64,000 nt of DNA from a virus. How positions within the stretch are numbered: the first letter of the stretch is position 1; every line of letters begins with the position of its first letter. A program made the position numbers and the translations under genes. Shown here in pieces: positions 10,220 to 62,320 of this stretch. The DNA is taken from IMG/VR virus record IMGVR_UViG_3300027863_001119, positions 32,001 to 96,000 of that record; one strand, given 5' to 3'. Under the pieces are notes generated by a model. That model worked only from the letters and a program-made list of their open reading frames with translations, made no database searches and had not been told where the DNA came from.

Positions 10220-13200
10220 ATGACACCTGCAGAGTTATTAGCTCAAAAAATAACAGAAAGTATATTAAAGCAAGATGCGGGGGCGGGAAAAACTATAGGA
10301 GATTTAACTGAAAATGATAAAAGTGGCTATATTTATAACTCGTGGCTTAATATTTGTAAACCTTTAGTTCAATATTTAGGGGCTTCTGGATCAGTATCTG
10401 GGTTTATTTTATGGGGAAGTATATTAGGAAGTATATCTGATCAAACTGATTTATATGAGATATTAACTACTCTTCAAAACGTAGATAATAATCTACAAAA
10501 CCAAATTACTTTAGTTTCAGGTTCTCTTGTAACTGAAATTCAAAATAGAATCAATGCTGATAATAATTTACAAAGTCAAATCAATCAATTAGTTATAAGT
10601 GGAGGCATAAGTACTGGTGAAAATTTAGGTAGTGGAGAAGGAATTTATATTGGTAATTTTGGTTCTATACTACGGTTTAAGACACTAAAAGGTTCTGGAA
10701 GTATAAATGTAAGTACAATTGGAAATGAGATTATAATTGATGGTCAAGATTTACAAAACCAAATTACTTTAGTTAGTGGATCATTAACTACTGAAATTCA
10801 AAATAGAATCAATGCAGATAATAATCTACAAAGTCAAATTACTTTAGTTTCTGGTTCTCTTGTAACTGAAATTCAAAATAGAATTAGCGGGGATAATAAT
10901 CTACAAAACCAAATTACTTTAGTTAGTGGATCATTAACTACTGAAATTCAAAATAGAATTAGCGAGGATAATAATTTACAAAACCAAATTACTTTAGTTT
11001 CAGGTTCTCTTGTAACTGAAATTCAAGACAGAATTAATACTGATAATAATCTACAAAACCAAATTACTTTAGTTAGTGGATCATTAACTACTGAAATTCA
11101 AAATAGAATCAATGCAGATAATAATTTGCAGAATCAAATTACTTTAGTTAGTGGATCATTAACTACTGAAATTCAAAATAGAATTAGCGAGGATAATAAT
11201 CTACAAAGTCAAATTACTTTAGTTTCAGGTTCTCTTGTAACTGAAATTCAAAATAGAATTAGCGGGGATAATAATCTACAAAACCAAATTACTTTAGTTA
11301 GTGGATCATTAACTACTGAAATCCAAAATAGAATCAATGCAGATAATAATCTACAAAACCAAATTACTTTAGTTAGTGGATCATTAACTACTGAAATTCA
11401 AAATAGAATTAGTGAGGATAATAATCTACAAAACCAAATTACTTTAGTTTCAGGTTCATTAACTACTGAAATTCAAGACAGAACTAATGTTGATAATAAT
11501 TTACAAAACCAAATTACTTTAGTTAGTGGATCATTAACTACTGAAATTCAAAACAGAATCAATGCAGATAATAATTTACAAAGTCAAATTACTTTAGTTT
11601 CAAGTTTATTAACTAATGAAATTCAAGACAGAATTAATGCAGATAACAACTTACAGAATCAAATAAGTCAATTAGCTGTAAGTGGAAGTATAAGTACTGG
11701 TGAAAATTTAGGTAGTGGAGAAGGAATTTACATTGGTAATTCGGGTTCTATACTACAGTTTAAGACATTAAAAGGTTCTGAAAATATAAATGTAAGTACT
11801 GTTAATAATGAAGTTATAATTAGTGGTCAGAATTTACAAAGCCAAATTACTTCAGTTTCAAGTTCATTAACTAATGAAATTCAAAATAGAATCAATGCTG
11901 ATAATAATTTGCAAAGTCAAATTACTTTAGTTTCAGGTTCTCTTGTAACTGAAATTCAAGACAGAATCAACACAGATAATAATCTACAAAACCAAATTAC
12001 TTTAGTTTCAGGTTCTCTTGTAACTGAAATTCAAGACAGAATCAACACAGATAATAATCTACAAAACCAAATTACTTTAGTTTCAGGTTCTCTTGTAACT
12101 GAAATTCAAGACAGAATCAACACAGATAATAATCTACAAAACCAAATTACTTTAGTTTCAGGTTCTCTTGTAACTGAAATTCAAGACAGAATCAATGCAG
12201 ATAATAATCTACAAAACCAAATTACTTTAGTTTCAGGTTCCCTTGTAACTGAAATTCAAAACAGAATCAATGCAGATAATAATCTACAAAGTCAAATTAC
12301 TTTAGTTTCAGGTTCCCTTGTAACTGAAATTCAAGACAGAATCAACACAGATAATAATCTACAAAACCAAATTACTTTAGTTTCAGGTTCTCTTGTAACT
12401 GAAATTCAAGACAGAATCAATGCAGATAATAATCTACAAAACCAAATTACTTTAGTTTCAGGTTCCCTTGTAACTGAAATTCAAAACAGAATCAATGCAG
12501 ATAATAATCTACAAAACCAAATTACTTTAGTTTCAGGTTCCCTTGTAACTGAAATTCAAAACAGAATCAATGCAGATAATAATCTACAAAGTCAAATTAC
12601 TTTAGTTTCAGGTTCCCTTGTAACTGAAATTCAAAATAGAATTAGCGGAGATAATAATTTACAAAACCAAATTACTTTAGTTAGTGGATCATTAACTACT
12701 GAAATCCAAAATAGAATCAATGCAGATAATAATCTACAAAACCAAATTACTTTAGTTAGTGGATCATTAACTACTGAAATCCAAAATAGAATCAATGCAG
12801 ATAATAATCTACAAAACCAAATTACTTTAGTTTCAGGTTCATTAACTAATGAAATTCAAAACAGAATCAATGCAGATAATAATCTACAAAGTCAAATTAC
12901 TTTAGTTTCAGGTTCCCTTGTAACTGAAATTCAAAATAGAATTAGCGGAGATAATAATTTACAAAACCAAATTACTTTAGTTAGTGGATCATTAACTACT
13001 GAAATCCAAAATAGAATCAATGCAGATAATAATCTACAAAACCAAATTACTTTAGTTTCAGGTTCATTAACTAATGAAATTCAAAACAGAATCAATGCAG
13101 ATAATAATCTACAAAGTCAAATTACTTTAGTTTCAGGTTCCCTTGTAACTGAAATTCAAAATAGAATTAGCGGAGATAATAATTTACAAAACCAAATTAC

Positions 13201-15931: not shown

Positions 15932-17335
15932 ATGGCAAGAACTTTTTCTAATATTGTAAATTCAATGATCTCTTTTATAAAAAGTGTAAAACCAACTATT
16001 GATACAAGTGAAGGGACGATTGTTAGAGATGTAATAATTGATGCTCCTTCTCAAGAGCTTGCAAAAATTTATTCCGAAATGGATACAATTTCTTTAAGTC
16101 AATCTCTTCTTACAGCTCCAGACTCAGTTCTTGATAAAATAGCTTCTAATTTAGGATTAGTTAGGAAAAATGCAAGACAGTCAAAAGGATATGTAACATT
16201 TTTCAGAAATACTGCACCTAGTTTTGATATAACAATTCCTGCTGGTACAGTAGTATCTACATCTCCTACCAATACTACGGAGGCACAGCGTTTTGTTACA
16301 TTATCAACTGTTACAATGTACACAGCGTTTTCACAAACCTATTTAAATCCCAACACTGGTGTATATGAAGTAACTGCGCCAATTGTATCTGTATTTCCGG
16401 GTGCAAATAGTGTTGTTGGTCCTTTATCTATTAATACTATTATTACTCCAATTACAGGAATCGAAGGATGTTATAATAAAGAGTCAACTACAGGAGGAAT
16501 GGATAGAGAAGACACAGAAACTTTTAGAAATAGGATTGCTTTAAAATGGAAAGGAAGTAATTTAGGAACTTTAAGCGGATTATTAAGTGATGTCTTAATG
16601 TTTTCAGAAGATGTAATTGATGCAAAAGTATTGGGGCACAATGATGTAGGGAGAGAAGATGCGGGAGCAGTAGATGTTTATGTAAAAGGATACAGAATAA
16701 GTAATACTCAAGAAGTTTTTTCTGCAGTATTAAATCCTTCATTTGACGAAATAGTTTTATCTAATCAACCCGTAAGAGAAATTTTTTATATAGCTCAAGG
16801 AGGAAGTGAGATTACTACTAATTATAGTTTTGTAAAAGACTCTGGAGCTTATGCGGGTTCAGTTAAAGGAAACGACAAAATAACCTTTAGTCCTCCTTTA
16901 TTTTCTTCTTCGGGATCTGTTATAGTAAATTACTCTTATAATTCTCTTATATCCGATTTGCAAAATTACCTTTTAAGAGAAGACAAATTAATTCAAAATG
17001 TAGATATTTTAGTAAAAGAAGCAATTGTCGTTCCTATTGTCTTAAATATAACAATTAGAGCTTTACCTGGTTATGACCAACTCAGTCTTGAAAGTTTAAT
17101 TAGAGATGAAATATCTTCCTTTATCGACAGTTTACATATAGGACAAGAATTACAACAAGCCGATATTGCAAGAGTAATTCTCAATACAAATGGAGTTGAT
17201 GATGTAAAGCTTCCATTTAATGAATTTAAAAGTGAAGATAATAGTATATTACCCAATAACTTTGGAAATCTTGAAATTCCGTTTAATTGTTTTCCTACAC
17301 TAAGTAATTTAACTATAAATTGGTTTACAGTATGA
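15932..17335 (+). CDS. Baseplate J-like wedge protein
   Basis: DTSEGT.VRD, LD.IA...GL.R..A, TIPAGTVV, GG.D.E....FR.RI, GAVDVYV motifs. Confidence 0.85.
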   Translation: MARTFSNIVNSMISFIKSVKPTIDTSEGTIVRDVIIDAPSQELAKIYSEMDTISLSQSLLTAPDSVLDKIASNLGLVRKNARQSKGYVTFFRNTAPSFDITIPAGTVVSTSPTNTTEAQRFVTLSTVTMYTAFSQTYLNPNTGVYEVTAPIVSVFPGANSVVGPLSINTIITPITGIEGCYNKESTTGGMDREDTETFRNRIALKWKGSNLGTLSGLLSDVLMFSEDVIDAKVLGHNDVGREDAGAVDVYVKGYRISNTQEVFSAVLNPSFDEIVLSNQPVREIFYIAQGGSEITTNYSFVKDSGAYAGSVKGNDKITFSPPLFSSSGSVIVNYSYNSLISDLQNYLLREDKLIQNVDILVKEAIVVPIVLNITIRALPGYDQLSLESLIRDEISSFIDSLHIGQELQQADIARVILNTNGVDDVKLPFNEFKSEDNSILPNNFGNLEIPFNCFPTLSNLTINWFTV

Positions 17336-19374
17336 TTTTTATAAACTGGAAAGATTACGCAAACAGAAGTATAAACAGAATCCTATCTAGCTTATTTTCT
17401 TATCTTTCATCTCGTTGGTATCCTGTAAATATTATTGGGTCTAATATATACAATATACTAAAAATGTATGCAGATCAAATATCTTCTGCTTCTATCGAAA
17501 GTTTTCAATTATTTAATGATCTTTTTATTGAAGGAGTAAGAACTACTCCTTTTCCTACTGACAGAAGTAGTAGTAAAATGTATGAGAACTTTGGTTATTT
17601 ATTTGAAGTTAGTAAAAATATAAGTCAAGAATATGAAATTCATAATTATATTTTACAAGGATACAGACAACAACTTCGATTTATATCAGAGGCTCTCTTT
17701 GATAGTACTACAATTAAAAGTATCCATCAAGTAGGACAAGCTTACAACGGAGTTTCTCCTTTAGTCAGAGAGTCTGTAAGAGATGTTTTAGGATGGAAGT
17801 TACAAACTGTTACAGGTTCTATATTGAGTACAGGAGATAATTTAGTAATTCTTGATGCAGAAATACCTAAAAAAGGAAATCTTTACTATACTAATCTTCC
17901 GGCGAGTGTAGGAGATCCTTATTTATATACATATTCTAAACTTGGTTTTAATACGAAATTGTTAGGAAAGAAACGTTATAATAGTGGAATTAATTGCACT
18001 TTATTCTTAGATAGTACTATTGCTACAAGTAGTATAGTTCGAAGTATAGAAAATTCTATTAATAATGTTTTAAAAGTAGATATAATTCCTTATTATGATG
18101 TTTCTGATAAAATATCTATATGGAAACCTTCTCCTATGAGTATACCTTCTTATTCTTCTGACTTATTTATGTATGCAAGTGGAGGGTACATTTATAATAC
18201 TCAACAAGTTCTTTTTTGGAGAGATCCAATATATGAGACAGATCCTCACGTTTCTTTAATAGATATTCCTTCCTATAAAGGCGCTTTAACATCTGGTTAT
18301 TTAGGAATTGTGGATATAAACCCTGACATTACTTATTATTATGATTGGTCTGTTTTACTAAGAAATGACGCAAGATATAAAGTTTATATGAGATCTTATC
18401 CTGGACAACCAATTCCAAGAACAGTTTACTTTAGAGAATATTTACCAGGATATAATAAGTTTAGTCTTTTATCTGACATAGAATCTTCAAAAGATTTACA
18501 ACCTATTAATCACTTAATATTTAATAAACTAAATGAAGTAGAAGATATTTCGACTGTAAATAATTTAACTCTTTGGACTAGTGGATCTTTTAAAACTACT
18601 TACATAAGAGGAAGAGAACCTTTAAAATTAGGGTGGAAACTAAGTTCTGGGTCTTTAATTTTAATATATAATGATGTCGCTTTGGATTTATCTCAAACTA
18701 ACTTTTTATGGGAAGGATGGATTTATGGAATAGATACTACATTTCGAGGTGTATTTGTTTATAAATATGAAGATCTTCCTTCTCCTCACGAAATGACTGT
18801 TATACCGGAAAACAATGGGTATTCAATAGCGATAGAATCATATGATTTTCTTAGCGGGTTTTTTAGCTTTAATATAAACAATAGTGGTAGTATTACTACT
18901 GTAAGGGCAGATATTTCAGAGTATCTTGAAGAATTACCATATAGACCTCATTATTTTGCATGTCTAGGTATTGATAATGTTATTTATTTACAAGTAGATG
19001 ATAATTTAATATATTCAGAACAAATAACAGGAAGTATTCCTTCTATACCATCTGGGTATTTAAGAATTGATACTAATTCTATAGGAATAGGATTTGATGA
19101 AATAATGTTAAGTACAGGAAGTATTGTTCCTGGAGAATTAAGAAATCGTTTTTATGATACATTGCCTAAAATAACATCTCGTAAAATAATGAACCAAGAT
19201 ACGATACATCAATTTCAATTTAGAATAGAAGCAAATGTAAAAGAATTTGAGTTGCATCAATGTTCTATTAGAGGAGTAACTACATCTTCTATTCCATTAC
19301 CTTATTTTAAAATAGCTCACGAAGCATCTGGGTATGGTGATATATATTCCGAAGATTATGGAATATACCTATAA
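17332..19374 (+). CDS. Baseplate wedge/structural protein with possible LamG-like domain
   Basis: ATGA overlap with baseplate J; ENFG..F pattern; C-terminal WEGWI..HYFAC..LQVD..FDEIML resembles a LamG beta-sandwich. Confidence 0.5.
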   Translation: MIFINWKDYANRSINRILSSLFSYLSSRWYPVNIIGSNIYNILKMYADQISSASIESFQLFNDLFIEGVRTTPFPTDRSSSKMYENFGYLFEVSKNISQEYEIHNYILQGYRQQLRFISEALFDSTTIKSIHQVGQAYNGVSPLVRESVRDVLGWKLQTVTGSILSTGDNLVILDAEIPKKGNLYYTNLPASVGDPYLYTYSKLGFNTKLLGKKRYNSGINCTLFLDSTIATSSIVRSIENSINNVLKVDIIPYYDVSDKISIWKPSPMSIPSYSSDLFMYASGGYIYNTQQVLFWRDPIYETDPHVSLIDIPSYKGALTSGYLGIVDINPDITYYYDWSVLLRNDARYKVYMRSYPGQPIPRTVYFREYLPGYNKFSLLSDIESSKDLQPINHLIFNKLNEVEDISTVNNLTLWTSGSFKTTYIRGREPLKLGWKLSSGSLILIYNDVALDLSQTNFLWEGWIYGIDTTFRGVFVYKYEDLPSPHEMTVIPENNGYSIAIESYDFLSGFFSFNINNSGSITTVRADISEYLEELPYRPHYFACLGIDNVIYLQVDDNLIYSEQITGSIPSIPSGYLRIDTNSIGIGFDEIMLSTGSIVPGELRNRFYDTLPKITSRKIMNQDTIHQFQFRIEANVKEFELHQCSIRGVTTSSIPLPYFKIAHEASGYGDIYSEDYGIYL

Positions 19375-19391: not shown

Positions 19392-19865
19392 ATGAAAAAA
19401 TTATTATATTTTCTTTTATTTGTAGTTTTAACTTATATAAATGTAATTTCACAACAACGATTTGATCCACCTTCATCAAGAACACAATATTATAAATTAA
19501 GACAATGGGCTCAATCAGCAAGACCAAGTGCAGACTCGCTAAATAAAAATTGGACAGATATTGATAGTTTACTTAACGAATTAATTGTTTTTACAGATCC
19601 AAATCAATTACAAATAATAAATGATACTTTAAAGTTTTCTCCTTCTTTTTCAGGACAAAACTATTTTGTGGTTAACAAACAATATGATACTATTTATGTA
19701 CAAGGCATTAGACCACAAGATGTTGTTGTTGTAACTATATTAAATACAATACCAGATCCACAAGATGTATTAGGAGTTAGGATTGAAACCGATCGATTTA
19801 TTGTATCTAGACCTTCTACAAGTACAAGAGAATTATGGTATTGTTGGATTTGGATAAAGAAATAA
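19392..19865 (+). CDS. Secreted protein with signal peptide and tail-fibre-anchor-like motif
   Basis: AGGAGG SD; MKKLLYFLLFVVLTYINVIS-Q signal peptide; TQYYKL...DSLNKNW.DIDSLL motif. Confidence 0.6.
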   Translation: MKKLLYFLLFVVLTYINVISQQRFDPPSSRTQYYKLRQWAQSARPSADSLNKNWTDIDSLLNELIVFTDPNQLQIINDTLKFSPSFSGQNYFVVNKQYDTIYVQGIRPQDVVVVTILNTIPDPQDVLGVRIETDRFIVSRPSTSTRELWYCWIWIKK

Positions 19866-19881
19866 AGAAAGAAGATACTAT

Positions 19882-22704
19882 ATGAAAAGAATCATAATTA
19901 TCATTTTATTCTTATCACAAAATTTATTAGGACAGTTTGCAGGAGGAAGTGGTACTCAAAATGATCCTTATCTTATTTCTACCGCTCAACAATTTAATCA
20001 AATTCGTAACCAAGGTTCTAATACAACTGTTTATTACAAATTAATTAATGATATAAACTTAGATGATTTAGGAGTAGGTAGCGGAGGAAATTGGACTCCA
20101 ATAAATATATCTGCACGAGTATCTCTTGATGGAAATGGTCATGTTATAAGGAATATGAAAATGTATTATGAAGTTACGAGTGGTAATTATATAGGTCTTT
20201 TCTCAGGTGCTACTACTATTAGAGTATTCAATTTATCTTGTAAGAATTTTGAAATAGTAGACTCTACTTTAAATAATAATATGACAAATTCCTACATAGG
20301 ATTTATTGCTGGAAGATTCGGAACTTCTTTTTCTGATTTTAGAAATTTATTGTATAGAGTAATAGTTGATTCTTCAAAAATAATACTGAAAGAAAATTAT
20401 ATTAACATGCAAAATGGAGTCGGTGGAATTATAGGATATATTGGTACTACTACTTTAGATAGCGTAAAAGAATGTGCGATAAGAAATACTCTTATATGGA
20501 CAGCAGGGGATGGGACAAGCGGCGCAGGATTTTCAACAGGGGCAATTTGTGGTACAATTGTAGAAGGAGTAATTCAAAAATGTTTTGCAGAAAATGTACA
20601 TATAAAAGGAAGAAGATACTTAACATCTTCTGGAAATCTTGGAGCGTTTTTAGGATATATAGGATATTCTGCAAGTTCGAGTGGAAACGTAATAATAGAA
20701 GATTGTTTTTTCAAAGGTAAAATAACATTAACAACTAATTCTGGAGGAGCTACTGTAGGGTTTGTTACAGGAGTAGGATATTCAGGCGGAAGTCCTAATT
20801 TAATTATAAGAAGGTGTTATAGTACCACACAATTTGAAGGACCCGCGGGAGGTTTTACTAAATTAGGATGGTCTGGAGTTTCTCAAAACATATTCTATTC
20901 ATATTTTAATTATGAAATTTGTGGTACTCAAAAAAGCGCTTCTGTTTTAGTAAATTCTGATTCTGCTATAGCGAAGCTAACTGCAGAAATGAAAACTCAA
21001 AGTACTTATACAACATGGGATTTTGATAACACTTGGGCAATCGATCCTTCAATAAATGAAGGATATCCTTATTTAAGATGGGCTCCATTAACAAAGTATG
21101 ACACTTTAAAGTTTTTAAGTCCTTATCAAAATTCTTTATTTGTACAAGGGGATACTGTAAAGATTAAATGGTATTCTTCGAGAGATTCTGTAACTTTATT
21201 TGTATCTTTTTTGCAAGATTCTATTAATGTTTATAATAATACAACTTACCTTCTTCCTTTACCAGACTCAGCTCATAAATTTAACTTTACTATTATTGGA
21301 AAACCAATTACAAAAAATAATGTTGTTCCAATACCAGATACTTTATTTTTAAGTTATCTGCCAAATAGATATGTAGAAATTGATTCTTTATATATAAACA
21401 TATACGTTTTAAATCCAGTAAATTCCGGAAATTTTCAAAAAGACCTTAATGCAGTATTATCTTCAATGATTGTAGATACTGTAATACATGCAAAGATACT
21501 AAGCGTAGGATTAGATACTTTGGATGTAATATTTGTAACTCCTGATAGTATATTATATAGAGTTGGCTATTATAAAGTACAAGATACTACTCAAATACCG
21601 AATATTACTTACGTAGAAATTCCTTTAAGAATGTTTAGAAAAGGAATAGATGCTTGTGGTATGGTTAGAGTAGGAGAAAAGATGGCAGTAGTAGCTACTA
21701 CTCCTATACCAGAAGGAGGGTCTAGTATAACAGGATTTTCTGGTACATTAGGAAAAAGTGGAAAATCGAGTGGAGTATACTCTGGAGCATTTACTTATTT
21801 AGATATAGAAAAAGTTCTTAACTATCGTTTTGAAAGAATAAAAGTCGATATAAAGAAGGGCAAAACTTTGCCTAGTCCTTGTGGTTCATATTTTTGTTGT
21901 AATTACGTAGGAGGATTATTCTCTGGAATAATGTACATAGACTTAACTTGTGGATGGTATTCAAGTCCTCAAGGATGGACATCTAAAGATGGAAAAATGG
22001 TGGCGTGGGGGTACAACTTTACGGGTAAGAAAATAGAGCTTCCTATTTGGATACAACCATATCACAATAAAATAGTCTTTGAAGAAGAGTATCATTCTGA
22101 TTTTGTTTTACAAAGAAGTTGGTATACTTTTAAATACAAAGTAATAACAGTTTATGGTAGTACTACTTTTGATTGGAGTTGGTTTGACCCAGGTCGGTCT
22201 TTTTCTCAAAGTCAGGTTTTTTCTGATTATAATTATCATCCTACTTCAGTTCTTGTAAAAAATCCTTTTATATTCTTTGTTAATGAAAATAATGAATTGG
22301 TTACTCAAATAATCTTACCACATAAAACTTATGAGATTAAAACTTTCTTACCAGAATTATCAGAAAGAGGATTTCAACCACCATATGATATAGAATTCGA
22401 AATAATAGAAGGAAAACCCGTTTTATCTATATCAGATTCAAGAGATAATGCATTAGTAATGTTATTAGACGATCTCTTTAAACTATCTACAGAGGAGATA
22501 GAGAAGTTAGTTAATCCAGTTTTTATGACAAAAAAGATAAGTGTTAATATTATCAATAAACAATATTTATCACAGGATGTAATAAATTATTTATCAGAAA
22601 AGATACAAAATTGTGAATTTATTTATAATAGCAAAAGAAATTATTTTAGAGGAATACATCCAAAAATTTGGAAATATGGTAATCCTCAAGGAGAAAAAAA
22701 TTAA
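19882..22704 (+). CDS. Secreted GLUG-type beta-helix adhesin-like protein
   Basis: MKRIIIIILFLSQNLLG-Q signal peptide; FAGGSGT..DPYLIST, LDGNGHVI.N, GGIIG and WDF...W....NEGYPYL motifs of GLUG-repeat surface proteins. Confidence 0.7.
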   Translation: MKRIIIIILFLSQNLLGQFAGGSGTQNDPYLISTAQQFNQIRNQGSNTTVYYKLINDINLDDLGVGSGGNWTPINISARVSLDGNGHVIRNMKMYYEVTSGNYIGLFSGATTIRVFNLSCKNFEIVDSTLNNNMTNSYIGFIAGRFGTSFSDFRNLLYRVIVDSSKIILKENYINMQNGVGGIIGYIGTTTLDSVKECAIRNTLIWTAGDGTSGAGFSTGAICGTIVEGVIQKCFAENVHIKGRRYLTSSGNLGAFLGYIGYSASSSGNVIIEDCFFKGKITLTTNSGGATVGFVTGVGYSGGSPNLIIRRCYSTTQFEGPAGGFTKLGWSGVSQNIFYSYFNYEICGTQKSASVLVNSDSAIAKLTAEMKTQSTYTTWDFDNTWAIDPSINEGYPYLRWAPLTKYDTLKFLSPYQNSLFVQGDTVKIKWYSSRDSVTLFVSFLQDSINVYNNTTYLLPLPDSAHKFNFTIIGKPITKNNVVPIPDTLFLSYLPNRYVEIDSLYINIYVLNPVNSGNFQKDLNAVLSSMIVDTVIHAKILSVGLDTLDVIFVTPDSILYRVGYYKVQDTTQIPNITYVEIPLRMFRKGIDACGMVRVGEKMAVVATTPIPEGGSSITGFSGTLGKSGKSSGVYSGAFTYLDIEKVLNYRFERIKVDIKKGKTLPSPCGSYFCCNYVGGLFSGIMYIDLTCGWYSSPQGWTSKDGKMVAWGYNFTGKKIELPIWIQPYHNKIVFEEEYHSDFVLQRSWYTFKYKVITVYGSTTFDWSWFDPGRSFSQSQVFSDYNYHPTSVLVKNPFIFFVNENNELVTQIILPHKTYEIKTFLPELSERGFQPPYDIEFEIIEGKPVLSISDSRDNALVMLLDDLFKLSTEEIEKLVNPVFMTKKISVNIINKQYLSQDVINYLSEKIQNCEFIYNSKRNYFRGIHPKIWKYGNPQGEKN

Positions 22705-22719: not shown

Positions 22720-24693
22720 ATGGAGAGACCTTATTTTTTTAATGATCAGTTAGTTTTAAGCGAAGATTTAAATAGTATAAGTGATAGTCTTATTGGAAAC
22801 TTGCAAAATGTAATAAGATCCTTTTTAGGAAGAAGCGGGGGATACAATGAAGATCAACTTGTAACATATGGTAAAGATAAAGGCGGGGTTATAGGAAGTC
22901 CCTCAGAACACACTATGAATAAAAATCTAAAAGTAGTAAAAGTTCAAGATGATACAATAAGAATATATCCAGGGGCTGCTATATTAGATCCTGGAGAACT
23001 TATAGTTTTACCTGGAATTCTTACTATATCTAAAGGAGAGTCTTCACTTTATTATAGATGGACTTCTTCTCCTAATGATATTAATTATGTTAAAATTTCC
23101 TACGCAGAAGCTACTGGTAGTTTAAAAGCGGATGACTTAGGTGTATTACATCCTACAAGATACTATAGGTCTTTCTTTGTTTCAATAGATAATCTTCCTC
23201 CATCAACATCTTCTGAAATATTATTAGCAAGATTTCAAGCAGATGGTAATGGTAATATTGATTCAAGTGGTATAGAAGATACTAGATTGTATACAAAATG
23301 GTTTACTACTGCAGATTCTGTTGGAGTAGACCCTTATAAAGTTCCAGTACCTACTCACAAATCAGTTGCAGATCATATATATTCAACAGGGTCTGCAACT
23401 CCAACACCAAACAATCCTCATGGATTAAGTTTTGACGATCTTGGAGGAGATTTAAAATTATTACAAAAACGACACGCAACAGATTTACATGTAAATGGAA
23501 TTATCCCTATTGGAGTAAGAAACCAACAGACTCTTGATAGTTATAAAGGAGTAATCAATGATCAATATATTGGAGCATATATTTCTTTTAATCCTCCTTC
23601 TAATGCTTTTTTGTTAGTAAATGGTAATGTAATAACAGGAAGTTTACCTATTTTACGTGCATCTGATGCTCCGTCTGACGGTTTATATTTTGCAGTTGTA
23701 AACTCACAAGGAGGAGTTGAGTGGAAAGAATTTGATAGTTTTTTCCTTACTTATATTGATAATCTTTTTTCATTTAACTTAAATGGATATCATTATAGTA
23801 CAGGTCATAAAGGAATTGAATATTATCCATTAGGAGTTGCTGAAATAGCAGATGCGGGAGATGATATATTATCATGGACAGATTGTAGAACATTTTATGG
23901 AAATAATATACTTGACATTGCTGCAGATTATGAAGAGGGTGTACAAAATCCTTCTACATCTGAGTTAACATTAACTAGTTCTCTTAAAGATACATTGCAA
24001 AGATTACGCTATCAAATAGGAAAAGCACTTACTGGAACAGGCAGTAACTGGAAATCTTCCAATCCTTTAACAGCTGGACCTACTTCAGATGCAGATCCCT
24101 ACCATACTCATTTGAGTTTGCAAAATAAGAGTGATATTTATGTTATTCCTTATAGTCTTTTTGATCCATATATACCACCTACTCCTGCAAACCTTGATTT
24201 TGATCAATTTCTTGATGTTTGTCAATTTATACCATGGCATAATATTACTGGTAATCAAATATCTCAAGCAGATATAATTACGGGTAATCCCACTTCTGGC
24301 ACCGGAAGTTTTCAAATTACGATCAAAGAAAAAGGAATATATGAAGTAGCGCTTTGTAGTACTCATTATTGCTCTTATCAGGTTACGGGATCATATGGAA
24401 TGATTATAATTAAGCCATATCCTTCTGGAAGTATGCAACAACCACAGTGGCAGGTTGCTGGTTGGTCTTTTGCTCAGGTAGACTCACATTACACATATAA
24501 TTCTTTAATTACAAAAGCAATTGTAAATGTAGATGATACAAGTGGTATTTATAATAAGTTACTTGTAACTGGATATAATTATGTTACTCAACCTATCATT
24601 TGTATGAGAAACACGCGAAATTTATTTAATTTTAATGATCTACATGGAGGATATGCAACATATTTAAGAATAACTAAACTAAAGAATCAGTAA
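22720..24693 (+). CDS. Tail fibre / baseplate-attached structural protein
   Basis: GGAGG SD; N-terminal FFNDQ....DLN, I.PG.AI...GE.I, ILLARF and NPHG motifs common in myovirus fibre-base proteins. Confidence 0.55.
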   Translation: MERPYFFNDQLVLSEDLNSISDSLIGNLQNVIRSFLGRSGGYNEDQLVTYGKDKGGVIGSPSEHTMNKNLKVVKVQDDTIRIYPGAAILDPGELIVLPGILTISKGESSLYYRWTSSPNDINYVKISYAEATGSLKADDLGVLHPTRYYRSFFVSIDNLPPSTSSEILLARFQADGNGNIDSSGIEDTRLYTKWFTTADSVGVDPYKVPVPTHKSVADHIYSTGSATPTPNNPHGLSFDDLGGDLKLLQKRHATDLHVNGIIPIGVRNQQTLDSYKGVINDQYIGAYISFNPPSNAFLLVNGNVITGSLPILRASDAPSDGLYFAVVNSQGGVEWKEFDSFFLTYIDNLFSFNLNGYHYSTGHKGIEYYPLGVAEIADAGDDILSWTDCRTFYGNNILDIAADYEEGVQNPSTSELTLTSSLKDTLQRLRYQIGKALTGTGSNWKSSNPLTAGPTSDADPYHTHLSLQNKSDIYVIPYSLFDPYIPPTPANLDFDQFLDVCQFIPWHNITGNQISQADIITGNPTSGTGSFQITIKEKGIYEVALCSTHYCSYQVTGSYGMIIIKPYPSGSMQQPQWQVAGWSFAQVDSHYTYNSLITKAIVNVDDTSGIYNKLLVTGYNYVTQPIICMRNTRNLFNFNDLHGGYATYLRITKLKNQ

Positions 24694-24740: not shown

Positions 24741-25961
24741 GTGAAACTATTATTTATTACTGATGATATTCGTTTAAATACAGGAGTAGGAATACAAGCA
24801 AGAAAGTTGACCAAAGGATTAGCAAACTTAGGTTATGAAGTAGTAGTAATAGGGTGTGCATTAAATCATAAAGACCTAACTCCTGTTAAAGAAGATGTGT
24901 TAATATATCCAGTTAACATAGGTAGAGAGTATGGGGATAAGAACTTTGTAAGGTATGTTATTGATAAAGAGAAGCCCGACTTTATAATTCCTTTTTCTGA
25001 TCCTCGATTTTTTGGATACTTATTTAAAATGGATGATGAAATCAGAGAGTATAGTAGAATAGTATTTTACCATACTTGGGATAATGACCCTTTTCCAAAA
25101 TTTAACCTTCCTTTTTATGAATCTTGTGATGCGTTAGTAATGATTTCAAAATTTTCTTATGAATTAATGAAGGAAAATATTAAAGATAAACCAATTTATT
25201 GTGTTCAACATGGGTTTGATCCTACAGAATTTTATCCTTTACCACAAAACATTATTAGAAAAGAAAGAGAAAACTTAAAAAATCTTGTAAATATGGAAAA
25301 TCTTGAGTTCATTATATTTTGGAACAATAGAAATATTATAAGAAAAAGAGTAGGAGATGTTTTAATGATTTTTAAAGAATTTCATAAAACTCATCCACAC
25401 TCTTTACTTCTTATGAATACTGATCCAATAGATGTTGAAGGTATAGATATACTACAATTTCATAGAGATTTAGGATTTGAAAAAGTTCCAGTTGTTTATA
25501 ATTTTGAAAAAGTAAAGTCTGATAGGTTAAATTTATTCTACAATATAGCAGACGTAACGTTTACGATAACTTATAATGAAGGTTTCGGACTTTGTGTAGG
25601 AGAATCTTTATGTGCAGGAACTCCTGTTGTTGCGACTAAAACTGGTGGTATGACAGAGCAATTAACGGATGGGAACAAAGTATATGGAATATTGATGGAA
25701 CCCGATGTAAGAACTTTATTTGGAGTTCCCGGTGCATCTTATATATATCAAGATTATGTTTCATTTGACACTGCAATTAATTCTTTGCATACTATGTATA
25801 AAGAGCGCAAAACATTAAAAGAAACTATTGGAAAAGAAGCAAGAGAACACATCATATCTCATTTTCATATAAATCAAGTAATAGAAAAATGGGATAAAAT
25901 TTTAAAAGAACTTTATGAACAACCAAAATCTTATAAAAGAGTTAAATTAACAACAATATAA
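24741..25961 (+). CDS. Glycosyltransferase, GT-B fold (GT4-like)
   Basis: GTG start after AGGAG; TGVG near N-terminus; NRN..RK and EGFGLCVGESLCAGTPVV (EX7E) motifs. Confidence 0.9.
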   Translation: MKLLFITDDIRLNTGVGIQARKLTKGLANLGYEVVVIGCALNHKDLTPVKEDVLIYPVNIGREYGDKNFVRYVIDKEKPDFIIPFSDPRFFGYLFKMDDEIREYSRIVFYHTWDNDPFPKFNLPFYESCDALVMISKFSYELMKENIKDKPIYCVQHGFDPTEFYPLPQNIIRKERENLKNLVNMENLEFIIFWNNRNIIRKRVGDVLMIFKEFHKTHPHSLLLMNTDPIDVEGIDILQFHRDLGFEKVPVVYNFEKVKSDRLNLFYNIADVTFTITYNEGFGLCVGESLCAGTPVVATKTGGMTEQLTDGNKVYGILMEPDVRTLFGVPGASYIYQDYVSFDTAINSLHTMYKERKTLKETIGKEAREHIISHFHINQVIEKWDKILKELYEQPKSYKRVKLTTI

Positions 25962-25972
25962 AGAGAGGAATT

Positions 25973-27199
25973 ATGAATAAACCGAATATTGTTTTAAGAG
26001 CTCCAGTTTTTTCTCAAAGTGGATACGGAGCTCACAGTAGAGATATTGCTATTTCTTTGTGGAATAGTCAAAAGTTTAACATTGCAATTTTACCAACTCA
26101 ATGGGGTGGATCAACAAATACTGCGGATACTATTCCCGTAAAAGATAAAGAAGTACTGTTATTTATGTGTAATAATGTTATACACAAATATGTTCCTTTT
26201 ATATTTGTACATGTTGGAATACCACCAGAGTTTACAAAAGTAGGCAATTTAAACGTAGGAATTACAGCAGGTTTAGAGTCAAACAAAATACCTAAGGAGT
26301 GGGTAGATAAGTGTAACTTAATGGATTTAGTAATTGTTCCAAGTAATTTTCAAAGAGATGTTTTCAAAAATAGTGGGGTTACTACTAAGATAGCAGTAGT
26401 AGAAGAGGGAGTAGATACTAGTATTTTTAATAATAATCCAGTTAATTCCGATGTCTTTGTATACAAACTTTTAGATGATTTACCGTGCGAAAAAAACTTA
26501 CTAGGTGTAGGTCAATGGTTGCAAGGAGGAATCGGAGAAGACAGAAAAGGGATAGGGTTGCTACTAAATTTGTTTGTAAAAACTTTTGAAAATAACAAAA
26601 AAGTAGGTTTAGTATTAAAAACACAAATTTCTAATAATTCTTCTTATGATTACTACCATGTACAACAAAGAATTAAATCTATTAAAGGAAACGCTTTATA
26701 TCCTAAGATAACTTTATTACATGGAAACTTAACAGATGAAGAAATGGCAATTGTTTATAAACATCCTAAAATAACAGGGTTTGTATCTCTAACAAGCGGA
26801 GAAGGATGGGGAAGAGGTATTGCAGAAGCGGTTGCGTGTGATTTACCCGTAGCAGTAACTGGTTGGAGTGGACATATGCACTTTATAAATCCTAAATATT
26901 TTAATGTTATAGATTTCGATTTAAAACCTGTTTCTAAAGGAGCATTATCTACTGGATTTTTTACACCAGATATGATTTGGGCATACCCTAACATCGAGGA
27001 CGCAAAAAAGAAGATTAAAGACTTAATAGATAATGAAGAAGAAAACAGAAAAAAAGCAAAAGAAGCAGGAGAAATATTTAGAAAATCATTTTCAAAAGAA
27101 TCTACTTATAGTAAATTAATTGACTTATTTAGTAACCTTTCTCAATCTCTTATTTCCAAAAGCTCCTTAGGAAATATATTGACTTTAGATAAGGTGTGA
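25973..27199 (+). CDS. Glycosyltransferase, GT-B fold (GT4-like)
   Basis: SGYG, DRKG and GEGWGRGIAEAVACDLPV motifs. Confidence 0.9.
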   Translation: MNKPNIVLRAPVFSQSGYGAHSRDIAISLWNSQKFNIAILPTQWGGSTNTADTIPVKDKEVLLFMCNNVIHKYVPFIFVHVGIPPEFTKVGNLNVGITAGLESNKIPKEWVDKCNLMDLVIVPSNFQRDVFKNSGVTTKIAVVEEGVDTSIFNNNPVNSDVFVYKLLDDLPCEKNLLGVGQWLQGGIGEDRKGIGLLLNLFVKTFENNKKVGLVLKTQISNNSSYDYYHVQQRIKSIKGNALYPKITLLHGNLTDEEMAIVYKHPKITGFVSLTSGEGWGRGIAEAVACDLPVAVTGWSGHMHFINPKYFNVIDFDLKPVSKGALSTGFFTPDMIWAYPNIEDAKKKIKDLIDNEEENRKKAKEAGEIFRKSFSKESTYSKLIDLFSNLSQSLISKSSLGNILTLDKV

Positions 27200-27202
27200 T
27201 GT

Positions 27203-27252
27203 ATGTCAACCTTTTTAAAGGTTGACATTCGAGATGCTTTAGCATCTCGAAT
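27203..27252. repeat. Two abutting perfect inverted repeats (12-bp arms, TT spacer each)
   Basis: ATGTCAACCTTT-TT-AAAGGTTGACAT (27203-27228) and ATTCGAGATGCT-TT-AGCATCTCGAAT (27227-27252). Confidence 0.9.
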
Positions 27253-27504
27253 ACTTTAAATATAAATTTGTTCTTTGATTTTATTTTTTGTAAGAAAACT
27301 AACTTATTATATTTTAATAAGTTATAGAAACTATAAAAAGCATTTTTTTAACAGTTTTACAATCTTGAAAAAAATTTGAACTTAAATTATCTTTTAGGTT
27401 TTAACAATTTTTAAATTTTTTATTTCTATAAATTGTTATTTTACAACAAGTTATAAAAAAAATAAAAAGAAATGTAAATTTGTATGAAAAAATGCAAAAA
27501 TCAT

Positions 27505-27514
27505 TTGTATTATA
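27505..27514 (+). promoter_or_regulatory. Candidate phage promoter motif TTGTATWATA
   Basis: TTGTATTATA in the long intergenic region. Confidence 0.4.
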
Positions 27515-27516
27515 TA

Positions 27517-27533
27517 ATCGCGCTTCGCGCGAT
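27517..27533. other. GC-rich hairpin ATCGCGC-TTC-GCGCGAT
   Basis: Perfect 7-bp stem with 3-nt loop; minus strand contains GCGAAGC. Confidence 0.85.
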
Positions 27534-27583
27534 ACACATATAATTATTTATTAATATTAATATTATTATTATAATAAACGCCA

Positions 27584-27618
27584 TATATAATACGATTATA
27601 TAATACGATTATATAATA
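27584..27618 (+). repeat. 13-bp tandem repeat TATATAATACGAT x2.7
   Basis: Units at 27584, 27597 and (partial) 27610. Confidence 0.85.
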
Positions 27619-27660
27619 GGAATTCGTAATTTCGAATATGTTAAAAAGGAGACTTAGGAA

Positions 27661-29562
27661 ATGAATTTGTCAATTATTATTCCAGTTTACAATCAGTTAT
27701 TTTATACTAAGCAAGTTGTAGAATCTATACGTAGAGTTTTTTCACAATCTACTAAGATAAACAAACTCTTTTTAGTAATAGTAGATAATAATTCTACCGA
27801 TGAGACTTTACAATATTTAAAGAGCAAAGAGTACTTAAAAGAATCTCCAAACTTTTTTCCTTATTTTATTCATAGTGATGAAAATTTAGGGTATGGAGGA
27901 GGTGCAAATTTAGGGATAAAATACATTTTGAGTTTAAAAGAAGACTGCGATTTTTTGATTATGAATAATGATATGATTCTCCTTGATGGATGTATTGATA
28001 ATTTAGTTACTGCTGCATACTTAAGCAATGATATAGGAATTGTAGGAGGTAAATTATTATTTCCAGATGGAACTATTCAACATGCAGGTGCGTTTTTAAA
28101 TGTATTTGGATGGGGACAACATATAGATGCTGGACTTCCTACTTCTTTTATTAATCAAATTACAGAAGTAGAGTATGTTACTGGTGCATTGTTTTATATA
28201 AAGAAAGAGGTAGTTGATAAAGTTGGAATTTTTGATAATATATTTGAGAGAGGGTACTTTGAGGAAGTAGACTATGTTTATAGAGCTAGAAAAGAAGGAT
28301 ATAAAACTGTATATACACCATTTGCACAAGCTATTCATTATGAAAACGTTACTTCTAGAGATATAGTTAAAGGAGATAGTGAAGATGTTAAGAAACAAAT
28401 AAGTGATAAGAATCAAATTAAATTCTATTTAAAGAGAGAACAAGAAGAATATAAAAGTGATAATCCTTATAAAGTTTTGATATCCTCTGAAATATATGGA
28501 GAATGGTCTTTTTGTGGAGTAATGAGAAATTTAGCAAAAGGATTAAAAAGAAATGGAGTCGATGTTTCAATTGCTCCAGTTGAATATCATTATGATAAGA
28601 AAAATATGATTGATTGGGAAATTAAGGAGATGATTTTAAAACCTAATGATTACTGGAATAGAGTTGTTTTAAGATCTTCAGAAGGGGATCATATGTATTT
28701 AATGCCTCCAGGAAAACAACGTATTGCACATACTACAGGAGAAAGTACCAGAGTTCCAAAACAGTGGGTAGAACAATTAAATAACGTAGACAAAGTTTTT
28801 ACAACTTCTACTTTTTTTAGAAATGTTTTATTAGAGTGTGGAGTTAAGACTCCTATTTTTGTGTTGCCAAATTCAGTTGATACTTCTTTATTCAAAAAAG
28901 AAGGAAGCAGATTGAATATAGATGGATTAAAAGGATTAAATTTTGTTTCTGTTTTCCATTTTGGAGAAAGAAAAGCCCCCGAAATTTTAGTAAAGGCATT
29001 TTGTAATGCTTTTACAAAGAATGATGATGTTACTTTAACTATTCACGCACTATCTATGAAGTTTGTTTTAGAACAAAAAGGAATGTCAATAGTTGATTGG
29101 ATAAACTCTATTGTACCGTTTGAAAATCGTCCTTCTATACTTGTAACAACAAATTACATATCAGACAAGCTTATGCCAAATTTTTTAAGAAATTTTGATG
29201 TTTTTGTGTTACCAACAAGAGCGGAGGGATTTGGATTACCATTTATAGAAGCAGGTGCGCTAGGCATACCTTCTATAGCTACTGGTTATAGTGGATTATT
29301 AGATTATGTAGGAGAAGAAAATGGGTGGTTGATTGATTACAAACTTGTAGATATTCCTTTACAATACTTACCGTATTTTCATAATTATATAGGAGGACAA
29401 TGGGCAGAACCTAGTGTTGATCATCTTACAGAGATATTTAGACATTTGTATAATAATAGAGAAGAAATAAAGAAAAAAGGTGAAATTGCTTATATAAAAG
29501 CACAACAATATTCAATTGAAAATATTGGGAAACTAGGAAAAAATTTAATTTTTGATAAGTAA
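27661..29562 (+). CDS. Bifunctional glycosyltransferase (GT2 + GT4 fusion)
   Basis: N-terminal SIIIPVYN, VDNNSTD, MNND, YFEEVD; C-terminal ERK and EGFGLPFIEAGALG. Confidence 0.9.
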   Translation: MNLSIIIPVYNQLFYTKQVVESIRRVFSQSTKINKLFLVIVDNNSTDETLQYLKSKEYLKESPNFFPYFIHSDENLGYGGGANLGIKYILSLKEDCDFLIMNNDMILLDGCIDNLVTAAYLSNDIGIVGGKLLFPDGTIQHAGAFLNVFGWGQHIDAGLPTSFINQITEVEYVTGALFYIKKEVVDKVGIFDNIFERGYFEEVDYVYRARKEGYKTVYTPFAQAIHYENVTSRDIVKGDSEDVKKQISDKNQIKFYLKREQEEYKSDNPYKVLISSEIYGEWSFCGVMRNLAKGLKRNGVDVSIAPVEYHYDKKNMIDWEIKEMILKPNDYWNRVVLRSSEGDHMYLMPPGKQRIAHTTGESTRVPKQWVEQLNNVDKVFTTSTFFRNVLLECGVKTPIFVLPNSVDTSLFKKEGSRLNIDGLKGLNFVSVFHFGERKAPEILVKAFCNAFTKNDDVTLTIHALSMKFVLEQKGMSIVDWINSIVPFENRPSILVTTNYISDKLMPNFLRNFDVFVLPTRAEGFGLPFIEAGALGIPSIATGYSGLLDYVGEENGWLIDYKLVDIPLQYLPYFHNYIGGQWAEPSVDHLTEIFRHLYNNREEIKKKGEIAYIKAQQYSIENIGKLGKNLIFDK

Positions 29563-29613
29563 TGATAAAACATTTTTTTTTAAGAAAAAAATAAGAAATT
29601 TTGTGGAGGCTTT

Positions 29614-30585
29614 ATGATATCTACAGAAGAGTTGTTGATTATACACGTACTTCCAGAAAATACGTCTCCTTGCGGAGGAATAAAAGTACATTATGATTTA
29701 TCTGAGATAGAGAAAAAATTAGGAATTGAGTCTATTATATGTTTTCCTAATGTTAATTCGATTCCTCATTGGATGGCAAAAAGAGACACAGGAAGAATAA
29801 CTTCATATAAAGAAGCTCAACAATATGCATATACTTCAAAGAAATCTGGTAAAAAAGTTGTAGTAATAGGGTGGGAAGATACTTATCCATTAGATTCTAT
29901 GTTTAATGATTTTATTAAAGTTTGTTACATACAAGGGCATGTATTTTGGAATCCTATTTTGAATAATTACAGAGATAAACACATACTTTGTATTTCAGAG
30001 TTTGTGAGAAAGTTTATTTTGAGAGAAGATGCTCACGTTGTAGAGCCTTTTATAAGAAAAGATATTTTTTATCCGATGAATTTTAATTTGAAATTTTTTG
30101 CGAATCGTTGTAATGTTTTAATACAAAAAAGAAAAAATGGTGATAAAGTTAGAGAAGATTTAATAAATATTCTTTACTCTTCTAATAAATATTCTCCTAC
30201 TCTTTTGAGAAGAGTTCAATTTTATACATTAGAAGATGTATCGGAGATTGCTTTCGCACATGTTTTAAGAGAACATGATGTTTTTATTGCTCATTCTTAT
30301 CCAGAAGGATTTGGATTACCTGCATTGGAGGCAATGGCGTCTAATACTTTTGTAATTGGTTTTACAGGAGGTGGTGGAGAAGAATTTATGAAAGATGGTC
30401 AAAATTGTTTTGTTGTAAAAGACGGAGATTTAAATGCCTTAGCAGATTCTTTATATAATTTTTTACTTTTAGATAATCAAAAACTTGAAGTGTTAATTAG
30501 AAATGCATACAATACTTCTTTAAAGTATACTAAAGAAAATACAACACAACAATATTTAAGATTTTTAGAAAGGGTAGTAGGATGA
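29614..30585 (+). CDS. Glycosyltransferase, GT-B fold (GT4-like)
   Basis: GGIKV near N-terminus; EGFGLPALEAMAS. Confidence 0.85.
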   Translation: MISTEELLIIHVLPENTSPCGGIKVHYDLSEIEKKLGIESIICFPNVNSIPHWMAKRDTGRITSYKEAQQYAYTSKKSGKKVVVIGWEDTYPLDSMFNDFIKVCYIQGHVFWNPILNNYRDKHILCISEFVRKFILREDAHVVEPFIRKDIFYPMNFNLKFFANRCNVLIQKRKNGDKVREDLINILYSSNKYSPTLLRRVQFYTLEDVSEIAFAHVLREHDVFIAHSYPEGFGLPALEAMASNTFVIGFTGGGGEEFMKDGQNCFVVKDGDLNALADSLYNFLLLDNQKLEVLIRNAYNTSLKYTKENTTQQYLRFLERVVG

Positions 30586-30797
30586 AAGGAGATGATAAAT
30601 ATTTGGCTTTTATTTTTTACACATTTTATTTTTTAGGTGCAATAACAAGCAAAGAAGAAGAATTAAGAGTTAGAATATTGAATCCATGGGGAGTGATTTT
30701 TATTTTGTTTACTTTTATATATTTTTTATTGAGAGGAGTATTTGGAGCAGTAAAGGCTATTTTTATTATTATTCGAAATAGAACAGTATTATGGTAA
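30582..30797 (+). CDS. Small membrane protein
   Basis: ATGA overlap; two hydrophobic stretches. Confidence 0.5.
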   Translation: MKGDDKYLAFIFYTFYFLGAITSKEEELRVRILNPWGVIFILFTFIYFLLRGVFGAVKAIFIIIRNRTVLW

Positions 30798-30812
30798 AAG
30801 GGAGTGAATAAA

Positions 30813-61984: not shown

Positions 61985-62320
61985 ATGGATGTATATTATA
62001 TAAAAGTTGGTAAAAGATATAAACCCGCAGGATTAAGTATACCCGATTTGTTTGAAGGTATTTGGTATGTTTCTTTTCAAGGAAATTCTAAAAGAGTCCA
62101 AAACGTAGTTGCGTATAGTAAAGATGTTCCGATTATTGATATTAGTAAAGAAATTACAAAAATTGAACTTGTTGAGATAATTTATAGTTATATAGTAAAA
62201 ATTTTTACTAGTTGTTCTTCTATTTGCTCTTCTACTTTACACGATTTTGCAGAAGAAATAGCAGAAGAAATTTTAAAAAAGGTAACTAAGAAAAAACATA
62301 ATAAAGAGGTAAAATTATGA
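61985..62320 (+). CDS. Hypothetical protein
   Basis: 111-aa ORF, ATGA overlap with recA. Confidence 0.5.

Follow-up and report, generated by a model that had tools for sequence, protein, structure and literature searches.

The window analysed here is a stretch of 64,000 nucleotides of viral DNA, namely bases 32001 to 96000 of the IMG/VR virus record IMGVR_UViG_3300027863_001119 (133,380 bases; CheckV completeness estimate of 74%). In the tail module of this uncultured, contractile-tailed phage, two adjacent genes encode proteins of 157 and 940 amino acids (aa), both of which carry a predicted Sec-type signal peptide followed by glutamine and an excess of the three-residue motif D-[ST]-[AILVMT]. 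As stated in the available text of a review, this motif drives the glycosylation of non-cytoplasmic proteins across the phylum Bacteroidota (PMC12871550). The genome has a G+C content of about 29%, and its long open reading frames (ORFs) all lie on one strand. Signal peptides were called by a heuristic of our own, which combines hydrophobicity with the (-3,-1) rule, and are predictions of this heuristic rather than of SignalP. For the two proteins, expected motif numbers were derived from 2000 shuffles of each protein's own composition. The two genes and their parts are the following:

19392..19865, + strand: gene of the 157-aa putatively exported, mini-fibre-like protein (ORF; 4 motifs against 0.6 expected; homologues P0082 (69%), P0083 (49%) and six in the contigs L003-L005)
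19392..19451, + strand: signal peptide of the 157-aa protein, residues 1-20, with predicted cleavage after ..VIS before QQ (hydrophobic window mean 3.17; modelled helix at residues 2-20)
19452..19589, + strand: N-module of the 157-aa protein, residues 21-66 (two predicted helices, 29-42 and 47-64; core ..ADSLN.NW.DIDS.. with two motifs)
19644..19862, + strand: C-module of the 157-aa protein, residues 85-157 (modelled beta-sandwich tip domain; predicted local distance difference test score, pLDDT, 79-91)
19882..22704, + strand: gene of the 940-aa putatively exported GLUG beta-helix protein (ORF; 14 motifs against 2.5 expected; full-length relatives P0002, P0003 and a protein of L003)
19882..19932, + strand: signal peptide of the 940-aa protein, residues 1-17, with predicted cleavage after ..LLG before QF (hydrophobic window mean 2.86)
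19933..21081, + strand: right-handed beta-helix of GLUG type, residues 18-400 of the 940-aa protein (homologues carry PF07581; confident model; Foldseek match 3n6z)
21094..21591, + strand: motif-dense stalk, residues 405-570 (11 of 13 Asp start a motif; model pLDDT < 50)
21592..22701, + strand: C-terminal part, residues 571-940 (0 of 15 Asp in a motif; Cys 592, 667, 672, 673, 690 and 911; last 20 residues conserved)

Both leaders, beginning with MKK.. in the 157-aa and MKR.. in the 940-aa protein, consist of a charged n-region, a hydrophobic core and a small residue, after which Gln follows. The ORFs and leaders are thus as described in a first-pass annotation of the sequence, which had reported Sec-type leaders ending in ..NVIS before QQ and ..NLLG before QF. 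Its motif counts were reproduced as well: 14 in the 940-aa protein (residues 127, 193, 360, 407, 424, 435, 446, 462, 486, 501, 532, 545, 555 and 568), with exactly 11 of the 13 Asp residues between positions 405 and 570 starting a motif, and four in the 157-aa protein (DSL 48, DSL 58, DTL 78 and DTI 99; 11 Asp in total). Shuffled versions of the 940-aa protein contain 2.5 +- 1.5 motifs, and none of the 2000 reaches 14; for the 157-aa protein the expectation is 0.6 +- 0.7 (p = 0.001). Jointly, the pair holds 18 motifs against 3.1 expected, corresponding to 5.8 times chance, while the 132 other ORFs, the comparison suggested by the same annotation, hold 114 against 110.2. Among the 60 window ORFs tested, motif density is highest in these two. 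A signal peptide followed by Gln occurs in only 2 of the 134 ORFs of the 133-kb record.

In principle, AT richness of the genome or sequence conservation could produce these features without any export or glycosylation. A G+C content of 29% favours Ile, Leu, Phe, Lys and Asn, which is in line with hydrophobic N-termini arising in this way; the restriction of the features to two ORFs of the same genome speaks against it, as do the relatives described below.

Other export types were considered. No lipobox is present, as the predicted mature N-termini start with Gln and no Cys is located near either cleavage site; a lipoprotein reading was ruled out because no Cys follows the leader. No type IX C-terminal domain was found, with no Pfam family at E <= 0.1 in either protein, and cargo of type IX secretion was ruled out for want of a sorting domain.

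For the large protein, a word-based search identified P0002 and P0003 as full-length relatives, with an identity of about 30-35%; for the small protein, it returned P0082 and P0083. About 77 partial relatives match residues 20-400 only; they mostly carry PF07581, often together with S-layer or type IX sorting domains. In a metagenome scan, the short contigs L003-L005 were found to share the gene order of the window, which consists of a baseplate gene, small exported proteins, an exported GLUG protein and a fibre-like gene. These contigs hold two small exported paralogues, as opposed to one in the window. In all nine aligned members of the small family (alignment A3), the leader ends in a small residue that is followed by Gln, and the leaders of four out of four large-protein relatives end in HG, NA, KG or QA, each followed by QF. 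The leaders diverge yet retain their n-h-c shape, the small residue at -1 and the Gln at +1, which is difficult to reconcile with a compositional by-product.

The motif excess is retained in the same way. Members of the large family contain 10-14 motifs against 2.5-3.3 expected and those of the small family 3-5 against 0.4-0.7, while homologues of the flanking genes, which lack a signal, contain 0-1 against about 2.2. All three full-length relatives (34-35% identity) have a motif at eight of the 14 positions, six of which belong to the 11 of the stalk. At the conserved positions, Ser and Thr are exchanged, and the third residue varies within the allowed set. As the positions are kept while the residues vary, the target of selection appears to be the motif as such rather than individual residues. 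Every homologue down to about 34% identity has the signal, the +1 Gln and the motif excess, and the position in the tail module is kept, which is the co-conservation that the first-pass annotation had asked about.

In the contigs L003-L005, the small paralogues are arranged in tandem with overlapping stop and start codons (L003 34-973; L004 257-1208; L005 2236-3196). The second paralogue lacks the two core motifs of the N-module, with ADSLN replaced by NDLN or LDLN.

The small protein belongs to a wider modular family. When 1.84 billion representatives were searched with a profile of the nine small proteins, 291 matched at E <= 0.001, among them 55 with E <= 1e-10 and 9 with E <= 1e-30, giving a family size of at least 291 representatives. 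The N-module, comprising the leader and about 45 residues, stands at the start of proteins of 150 to about 900 aa whose bodies are unrelated. The C-module (about 75 residues) forms the end of proteins as long as 1358 aa, and right-handed, tailspike-like beta-helix domains were found in 3 of 10 scanned C-module proteins. Family statistics are based on the 150 best of the 291 profile matches. Met is the first residue in 144 of these, and the N-terminus is signal-like in 135. Gln occupies a (-3,-1)-compatible site in 116 of the 135, compared with Asn in 11, Glu in 9, Lys in 7 and Asp in 6; several of the 19 misses have Gln just beyond the search range. The 150 proteins contain 789 motifs against 251 +- 15 expected (3.1 times), and 146 of them lie above expectation, while five control motifs occur at 0.67-1.0 times chance in the same proteins. 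Part of this family-wide count is located in conserved module positions, as a by-product of conserved sequence would require. When the first and last 90 residues are removed from the 57 proteins of at least 300 aa, the remaining non-homologous middles still contain 257 motifs against 100 +- 9. Furthermore, the features are kept in relatives on contigs ranging from 28% to 60% G+C. A composition artefact is contradicted by these internal controls and was rejected as highly improbable.

The N-module is carried by seven IMG/VR loci, whose G+C content covers this range of 28% to 60%. L007 encodes a tape-measure protein (phrog_1533, 2e-96), two large ORFs, a 332-aa N-module protein and a 1206-aa signal-bearing GLUG relative with 14 motifs. 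In L008, an N-module protein is encoded directly behind the tape-measure gene. L009 encodes a 151-aa protein with 43% identity to the small protein of the window, followed by one short ORF and an 814-aa protein that matches the 940-aa protein over the first 450 residues (E 8e-21) and again over the last 22. The arrangement in L007 and L009 indicates that the pairing of the small with the large protein is conserved between phages that otherwise differ. In ten related loci taken together, 21 ORFs with signal and Gln contain 103 motifs against 32.0 +- 5.5, and 131 others contain 141 against 121.7 +- 10.3; L002 and L011 have no ORF passing the signal and Gln filter.

Scans of IMG/VR with single proteins returned one GLUG relative (L002) and otherwise none. 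Among GenBank phages, tblastn gave a single Bacillus phage match of 17% coverage for the 940-aa protein and no match for the 157-aa protein, P0124 and P0139; thus, no cultured relative is at hand. Pattern scans of 185,579 genomes (P0002, A5) gave no match, where near-exact peptides are needed and distant copies can be missed. Signal-free proteins sharing the tip module amount to only seven candidates, several of which have truncated leaders, and they do not form a valid control.

Two high-G+C viral contigs, L010 (2896-3678) and L012 (3250-4302), have a signal peptide with Gln fused to the sequence 'IQ[IV][RK]RGT', which in L009 (13157-13651) forms the very N-terminus of a signal-free protein. 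The same type of fibre N-terminus thus seems to exist with and without a leader. In addition, L009 contains three more small ORFs with leader and Gln (144, 101 and 123 aa) between the GLUG-type protein and an amidase-like gene (9884-11264), which looks like a cluster of exported small proteins beside lysis genes.

In the structural model of the 157-aa protein (mean pLDDT 69), the leader helix is followed by two helices and a confident beta-sandwich at residues 85-157. Comparison of the sandwich (residues 81-157) with 48,161 PDB representatives returned C-terminal tips of phage tailspikes and fibres as the best matches. The top ones are 9k4a and 7eea, a Klebsiella phage depolymerase and the tailspike of cyanophage Pam1 (both Z 7.2), followed by the R2 pyocin fibre (6cu2, Z 6.3), K1 lyase (7w1c, Z 6.1) and AP22 gp53 (4mtm, Z 5.6). 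ESM Atlas leads for the C-module are H_lectin, Gp53-like_C and K1-lyase_C at 0.84-0.87, which is under the 0.9 mark, and those in BFVD are likewise weak. The modelled resemblance of the C-domain to such tips, together with an N-module that heads many varied proteins, speaks for a fibre-like character of the 157-aa protein, with a presumed lectin-like tip. A resemblance of the N-module to the N-terminal anchors of tail fibres, proposed in the first-pass annotation, has no sequence match in Pfam, PHROG or PDB. A profile search of PDB sequences with alignment A3 gave only unrelated helical proteins (E 0.78 and 0.94).

For the large protein, the model is usable only for residues 20-400. The best Foldseek match of residues 18-400 is 3n6z (BACOVA_03286; E 2e-11, template modelling (TM) score by target 0.70, 405 columns), and the next is the N-domain of the Streptococcus pneumoniae IgA1 protease. 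Both share the GLUG-type beta-helix fold and differ from the window protein in being cellular surface or secreted proteins. According to precomputed tables, PF07581 is present in 50 or more of 80 sequence relatives, while the 940-aa protein itself matches no Pfam family at E <= 0.1, including PF07581. For residues 400-940, an Atlas search gave no usable match, with all structural rows at TM < 0.31. C672 and C690 are invariant in alignment A1 of the large-protein relatives, and invariant cysteines in the stalk or C-terminal part would fit oxidative folding outside the cytoplasm. The C-terminal end is common to P0002, P0003 and the L003 and L009 (814-aa) proteins. This conserved end, ..Y[FR]RG[IVL]H[PS]K...WKYGN.QG.. 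(window 22645-22701), persists where the middle of the protein is unalignable.

The GLUG domain bears on an alternative in the line of the display on the infected cell that the first-pass annotation had raised. The exported proteins would act as decoys or adhesins, exposed either at the surface of the cell or on vesicles of the outer membrane. Such beta-helix domains often occur in surface proteins that also have S-layer or type IX sorting domains, and O-glycoproteins of Bacteroidota have been found in outer membranes and vesicles, according to the portion of the review at hand (PMC12871550). The two proteins themselves have no visible route across the outer membrane, as they contain neither a type IX domain by Pfam nor a lipobox nor a beta-barrel, which makes this alternative improbable.

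The Gln at +1 connects the phage with a host lineage. In 332 of 334 Bacteroidetes species, Gln follows more than 48% of signal peptidase I sites (mean 71%), related phyla are mostly below 20%, and Ignavibacterium album reaches 77%, as given in the accessible part of the source (PMC5837995). Shine-Dalgarno-like sequences (GGAG, GAGG or AGGA at -20 to -5) precede 73 of 129 phage ORFs (57%) against a background of 15%. Elsewhere, they precede 1 of 44 ORFs (2%) in Cellulophaga phage phi18:3, 7% in a Bacteroidales metagenome-assembled genome (MAG) and 33% in an Ignavibacteriales MAG. The high Shine-Dalgarno use argues against a classical Bacteroidia host. The small-protein profile had two matches in 401 genomes of the phylum to which the Bacteroidales MAG belongs and the same two in 401 genomes of the class of the first match; they belong to the Ignavibacteriales MAG and a Melioribacter roseus MAG. 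Both are located in a phage-like gene run, in which a portal gene (phrog_156, 2.6e-23) is followed by an N-module protein (423 or 313 aa). In the Ignavibacteriales MAG, a 941-aa signal-bearing protein with 18 motifs comes next; PHROG recognises only the portal among the ten proteins of this prophage-like run. The same MAG has a compatible Gln in 36 of 64 signal-like proteins. Of the Bacteroidota host proposed by the first-pass annotation, the lineage stands and is refined: judged by these relatives and the Shine-Dalgarno use, the host on balance belongs to the class Ignavibacteria (GTDB phylum Bacteroidota) rather than to the classical Bacteroidia.

With regard to glycosylation, the available text of the review states that engineered motifs in exported proteins become glycosylated with nearly full occupancy, that cross-glycosylation between species is possible, and that the oligosaccharyltransferase is still undiscovered (PMC12871550). 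Thus, there is no marker gene to look for. In a rough test, exported-looking proteins of the Ignavibacteriales MAG (758 kb) contain 188 motifs against 147 expected (1.28 times) and cytoplasmic-looking ones reach 1.07 times. In the Bacteroidales control MAG, the same rough test gives 97 against 64 (1.51 times) and 1.26 times, respectively. In both genomes, the excess is small and does not decide the matter. Compared with these roughly estimated 1.3-1.5 times of exported host proteins, the 5.8 times of the window pair is far denser, which argues that something in the periplasm reads the motif.

The genes surrounding the pair are the following:

15932..17335, + strand: Baseplate_J wedge protein (PF04865 1.4e-16; phrog_6 9.3e-44)
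17320..19374, + strand: 684-aa protein directly upstream of the pair, presumed baseplate part (syntenic homologue in L005)
22720..24693, + strand: 657-aa protein directly downstream of the pair, without signal peptide, presumed fibre (syntenic homologues in L003 and L004)

The first-pass annotation had placed the pair between baseplate and fibre genes. The upstream side is confirmed by the Baseplate_J protein, while the downstream 657-aa ORF has no Pfam or PHROG family match, so that 'fibre' is a label only; the 684-aa ORF likewise has no match in either database. The 684-aa protein contains five motifs against 2.2 expected (p 0.069) and its L005 homologue one against 2.2, and the homologues of the 657-aa protein contain none against 2.1 (L003) and one against 2.6 (L004). 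The intergenic gaps around the pair measure 15-17 bases, and it is from these short gaps, as the one basis, that co-transcription of the pair with the baseplate genes is suggested. Promoter-like sites around the genes occur at chance level (81 against 77.6 +- 8.2), as do terminator-like ones (4 against 4.2).

A C-terminal tail of about 15 residues in the 684-aa protein (..GYGDIY.EDYGIYL) is kept in relatives (window 19300-19374; L004 3-248; L005 2180-2239); to regard it as a candidate docking site for the exported pair is pure conjecture. A run of glycosyltransferase-like ORFs at 24741-31951 begins 50 bases past the 657-aa ORF.

What the sequences show is that the features exist and are conserved, that the motif is under selection, and that several types of phage encode the proteins in the tail module. 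Export and adaptation to a periplasmic modification system are very probable. In the favoured explanation, both proteins would carry cleavable Sec signals that direct them to the periplasm of a Bacteroidota-lineage host, probably one of the Ignavibacteria. Signal peptidase I would then bare the N-terminal Gln, which a host cyclase may convert to pyroglutamate, and the general O-glycosylation system of the host would fill the D-[ST]-[AILVMT] sites. The periplasm would also allow disulfide formation. Most likely, the products would serve as accessory host-recognition appendages that dock on the cytoplasm-built baseplate when lysis merges the compartments. The complete chain, up to virion appendages docking at lysis, is given a probability of roughly 0.45. 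We infer export, capping and glycosylation as well as virion attachment, the last being the weakest step. A role as virion appendage is favoured because of the modular receptor-binding build, the fibre-like place in three kinds of tail module and the near-absence of the family from bacterial genomes. Fibre-less T4 particles reportedly accept fibres in extracts, so that joining after the compartments have merged is biochemically plausible. Tentatively, Bacteroidota-lineage phages may have an extracytoplasmic branch of tail assembly, in which Sec-exported modular receptor-binding appendages are capped, coated with O-glycans, cross-linked and added at lysis. The window would then contain a dedicated two-protein unit, conceivably a lectin-tipped mini-fibre together with a GLUG beta-helix protein on a glycosylated stalk.

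The closest backing for a place in the virion comes from the late proteins gp085-087 of phi18:3 (NC_021794), a cultured phage of a Bacteroidota host, which resemble the pair in having a signal followed by Gln (..GYS/QV, ..VSA/QT and ..LNA/QT). In the annotation of their record, they are structural or tail proteins of the virion, 'based on experimental MS/MS proteomics analysis', with MS/MS denoting tandem mass spectrometry. They differ in showing no detectable sequence similarity to the window proteins, and phi18:3 is short-tailed and belongs to another family, with the low Shine-Dalgarno use given above.

Several points weigh against virion appendages added at lysis. To our knowledge, tail assembly is cytoplasmic in every tailed phage studied, so that a periplasmic part could join only at or after lysis. 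The 657-aa ORF is a signal-free fibre candidate, and the phage would thus have no obvious need for the two proteins. The fold matches of the sandwich are middling (Z about 7) and mixed with lectins and other sandwiches, where Z < 8 can reflect a common arrangement, and sequence comparison with Pfam, PHROG and PDB links the N-module to none of the solved or curated fibre anchors. In the phi18:3 proteins the motif is not enriched, with one each against 2.9-3.7 expected, and their detection by mass spectrometry could reflect co-purifying envelope material. The host call is drawn from two distant relatives and the Shine-Dalgarno use. As the motif excess in the Ignavibacteriales MAG is modest, the glycosylation system is not demonstrated for that class.

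A competing explanation accepts export and holds that the proteins never enter the virion and work instead as binders or enzymes of fibre origin within the envelope of the infected cell. They might mask or destroy the receptor or its precursors, which would exclude superinfection and protect the progeny from debris as T5 Llp or Cor do, or they might loosen capsule or matrix before release. This explanation accommodates the export signals, which are the best-supported feature, the other signal-less fibre candidates of the phage, and the beta-helix, depolymerase-like domains of some family members. Moreover, receptor-blocking genes are known from positions in or next to tail or receptor-binding modules, as in the case of T5 llp, cor of T1-like phages and lambda lom. 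Their exported products are small lipoproteins or outer-membrane barrels that are expressed early or from prophages and are not fibre-like. By this comparison, the window pair differs in being large and modular and in lacking the lipobox Cys found after the leader in Llp and Cor. In the 133-kb record (74% complete), no integrase and no lysogeny genes were found. Furthermore, the combination of a single conserved N-terminal module with highly diverse bodies and tips fits a part that docks on a conserved partner. Hardly any bacterial genomes contain the family (2 of 401 in both the phylum and the class sample), which is not expected of a typical lysogenic-conversion gene, and signal-bearing proteins are annotated as structural in phi18:3. 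Action in the envelope, the main alternative, is considered rather unlikely.

The nearest printed statement concerns five proteins of Porphyromonas gingivalis prophages in which signal peptidase I is predicted to lay bare an N-terminal Gln. The consulted portion of that paper reads them as phage-encoded proteins that use host secretion to modify the host surface, in line with an envelope function (PMC10367356). As far as this portion goes, the five genes are of unknown function, are read as outer-membrane modifiers, and are not called fibre-like, motif-rich or part of a tail module. The known O-glycosylation substrates likewise share the three-residue motif and the signal peptides with the window pair, and for them the motif suffices outside the cytoplasm. 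Those described are all cellular, and the available text of the review, which dates from 2025, contains neither the word phage nor the word virus (PMC12871550). The MAT fibres of Bdellovibrio bacteriovorus are phage-fibre-like, carry varied binding tips and are displayed on the surface of the predator. They differ in being bacterial and from another phylum, with no link to the glycosylation motif or a virion stated in the part of the source at hand (PMC10769870). Among the matches listed in a search of the full-text literature, none described an export route for tailed-phage fibres. New here are the contractile-tailed context, the conserved two-protein unit, the family of N- and C-modules and the pointer to Ignavibacteria.

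In textbook pathways, the fibres and spikes of tailed phages are built in the cytoplasm. If the favoured explanation is true, the setting in which host range is determined changes, as the parts concerned would be glycan-coated, protease-resistant and disulfide-bonded, and the particle would leave the cell with host-type sugars on its host-recognition gear. For Bacteroidota phages from gut, soil and marine habitats, both the proteome and the structure of the virion would have to be read differently. Phage production and engineering would also be affected, since expression hosts without the machinery for pyroglutamate formation at N-terminal Gln and for O-glycosylation would yield defective fibres. 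If the proteins are instead retained in the envelope, a large family of phage effectors that derive from fibres and act on the host surface has so far gone unrecognised. In both cases, the combination of signal peptide, +1 Gln and motif density provides a cheap marker of host lineage for uncultured phages; when Shine-Dalgarno use is added, hosts of the Ignavibacteria type can apparently be told apart from those of the Bacteroidia type.

The motif is also frequent in a few other ORFs of the record. Two overlapping ORFs without a signal-like N-terminus exceed chance, namely 62317-63375 with four motifs against 1.2 (p 0.029) and 63359-63952 with three against 0.3 (p 0.004). A 257-aa ORF at about 115361-116134 of G000:C1 (outside the window; 83361-84134 on the scale of the window) contains four motifs (1.56 per 100 aa) and an anchor-like N-terminal segment that, by eye, is not a cleavable leader. 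If anchored and facing the periplasm, this protein could be a third substrate.

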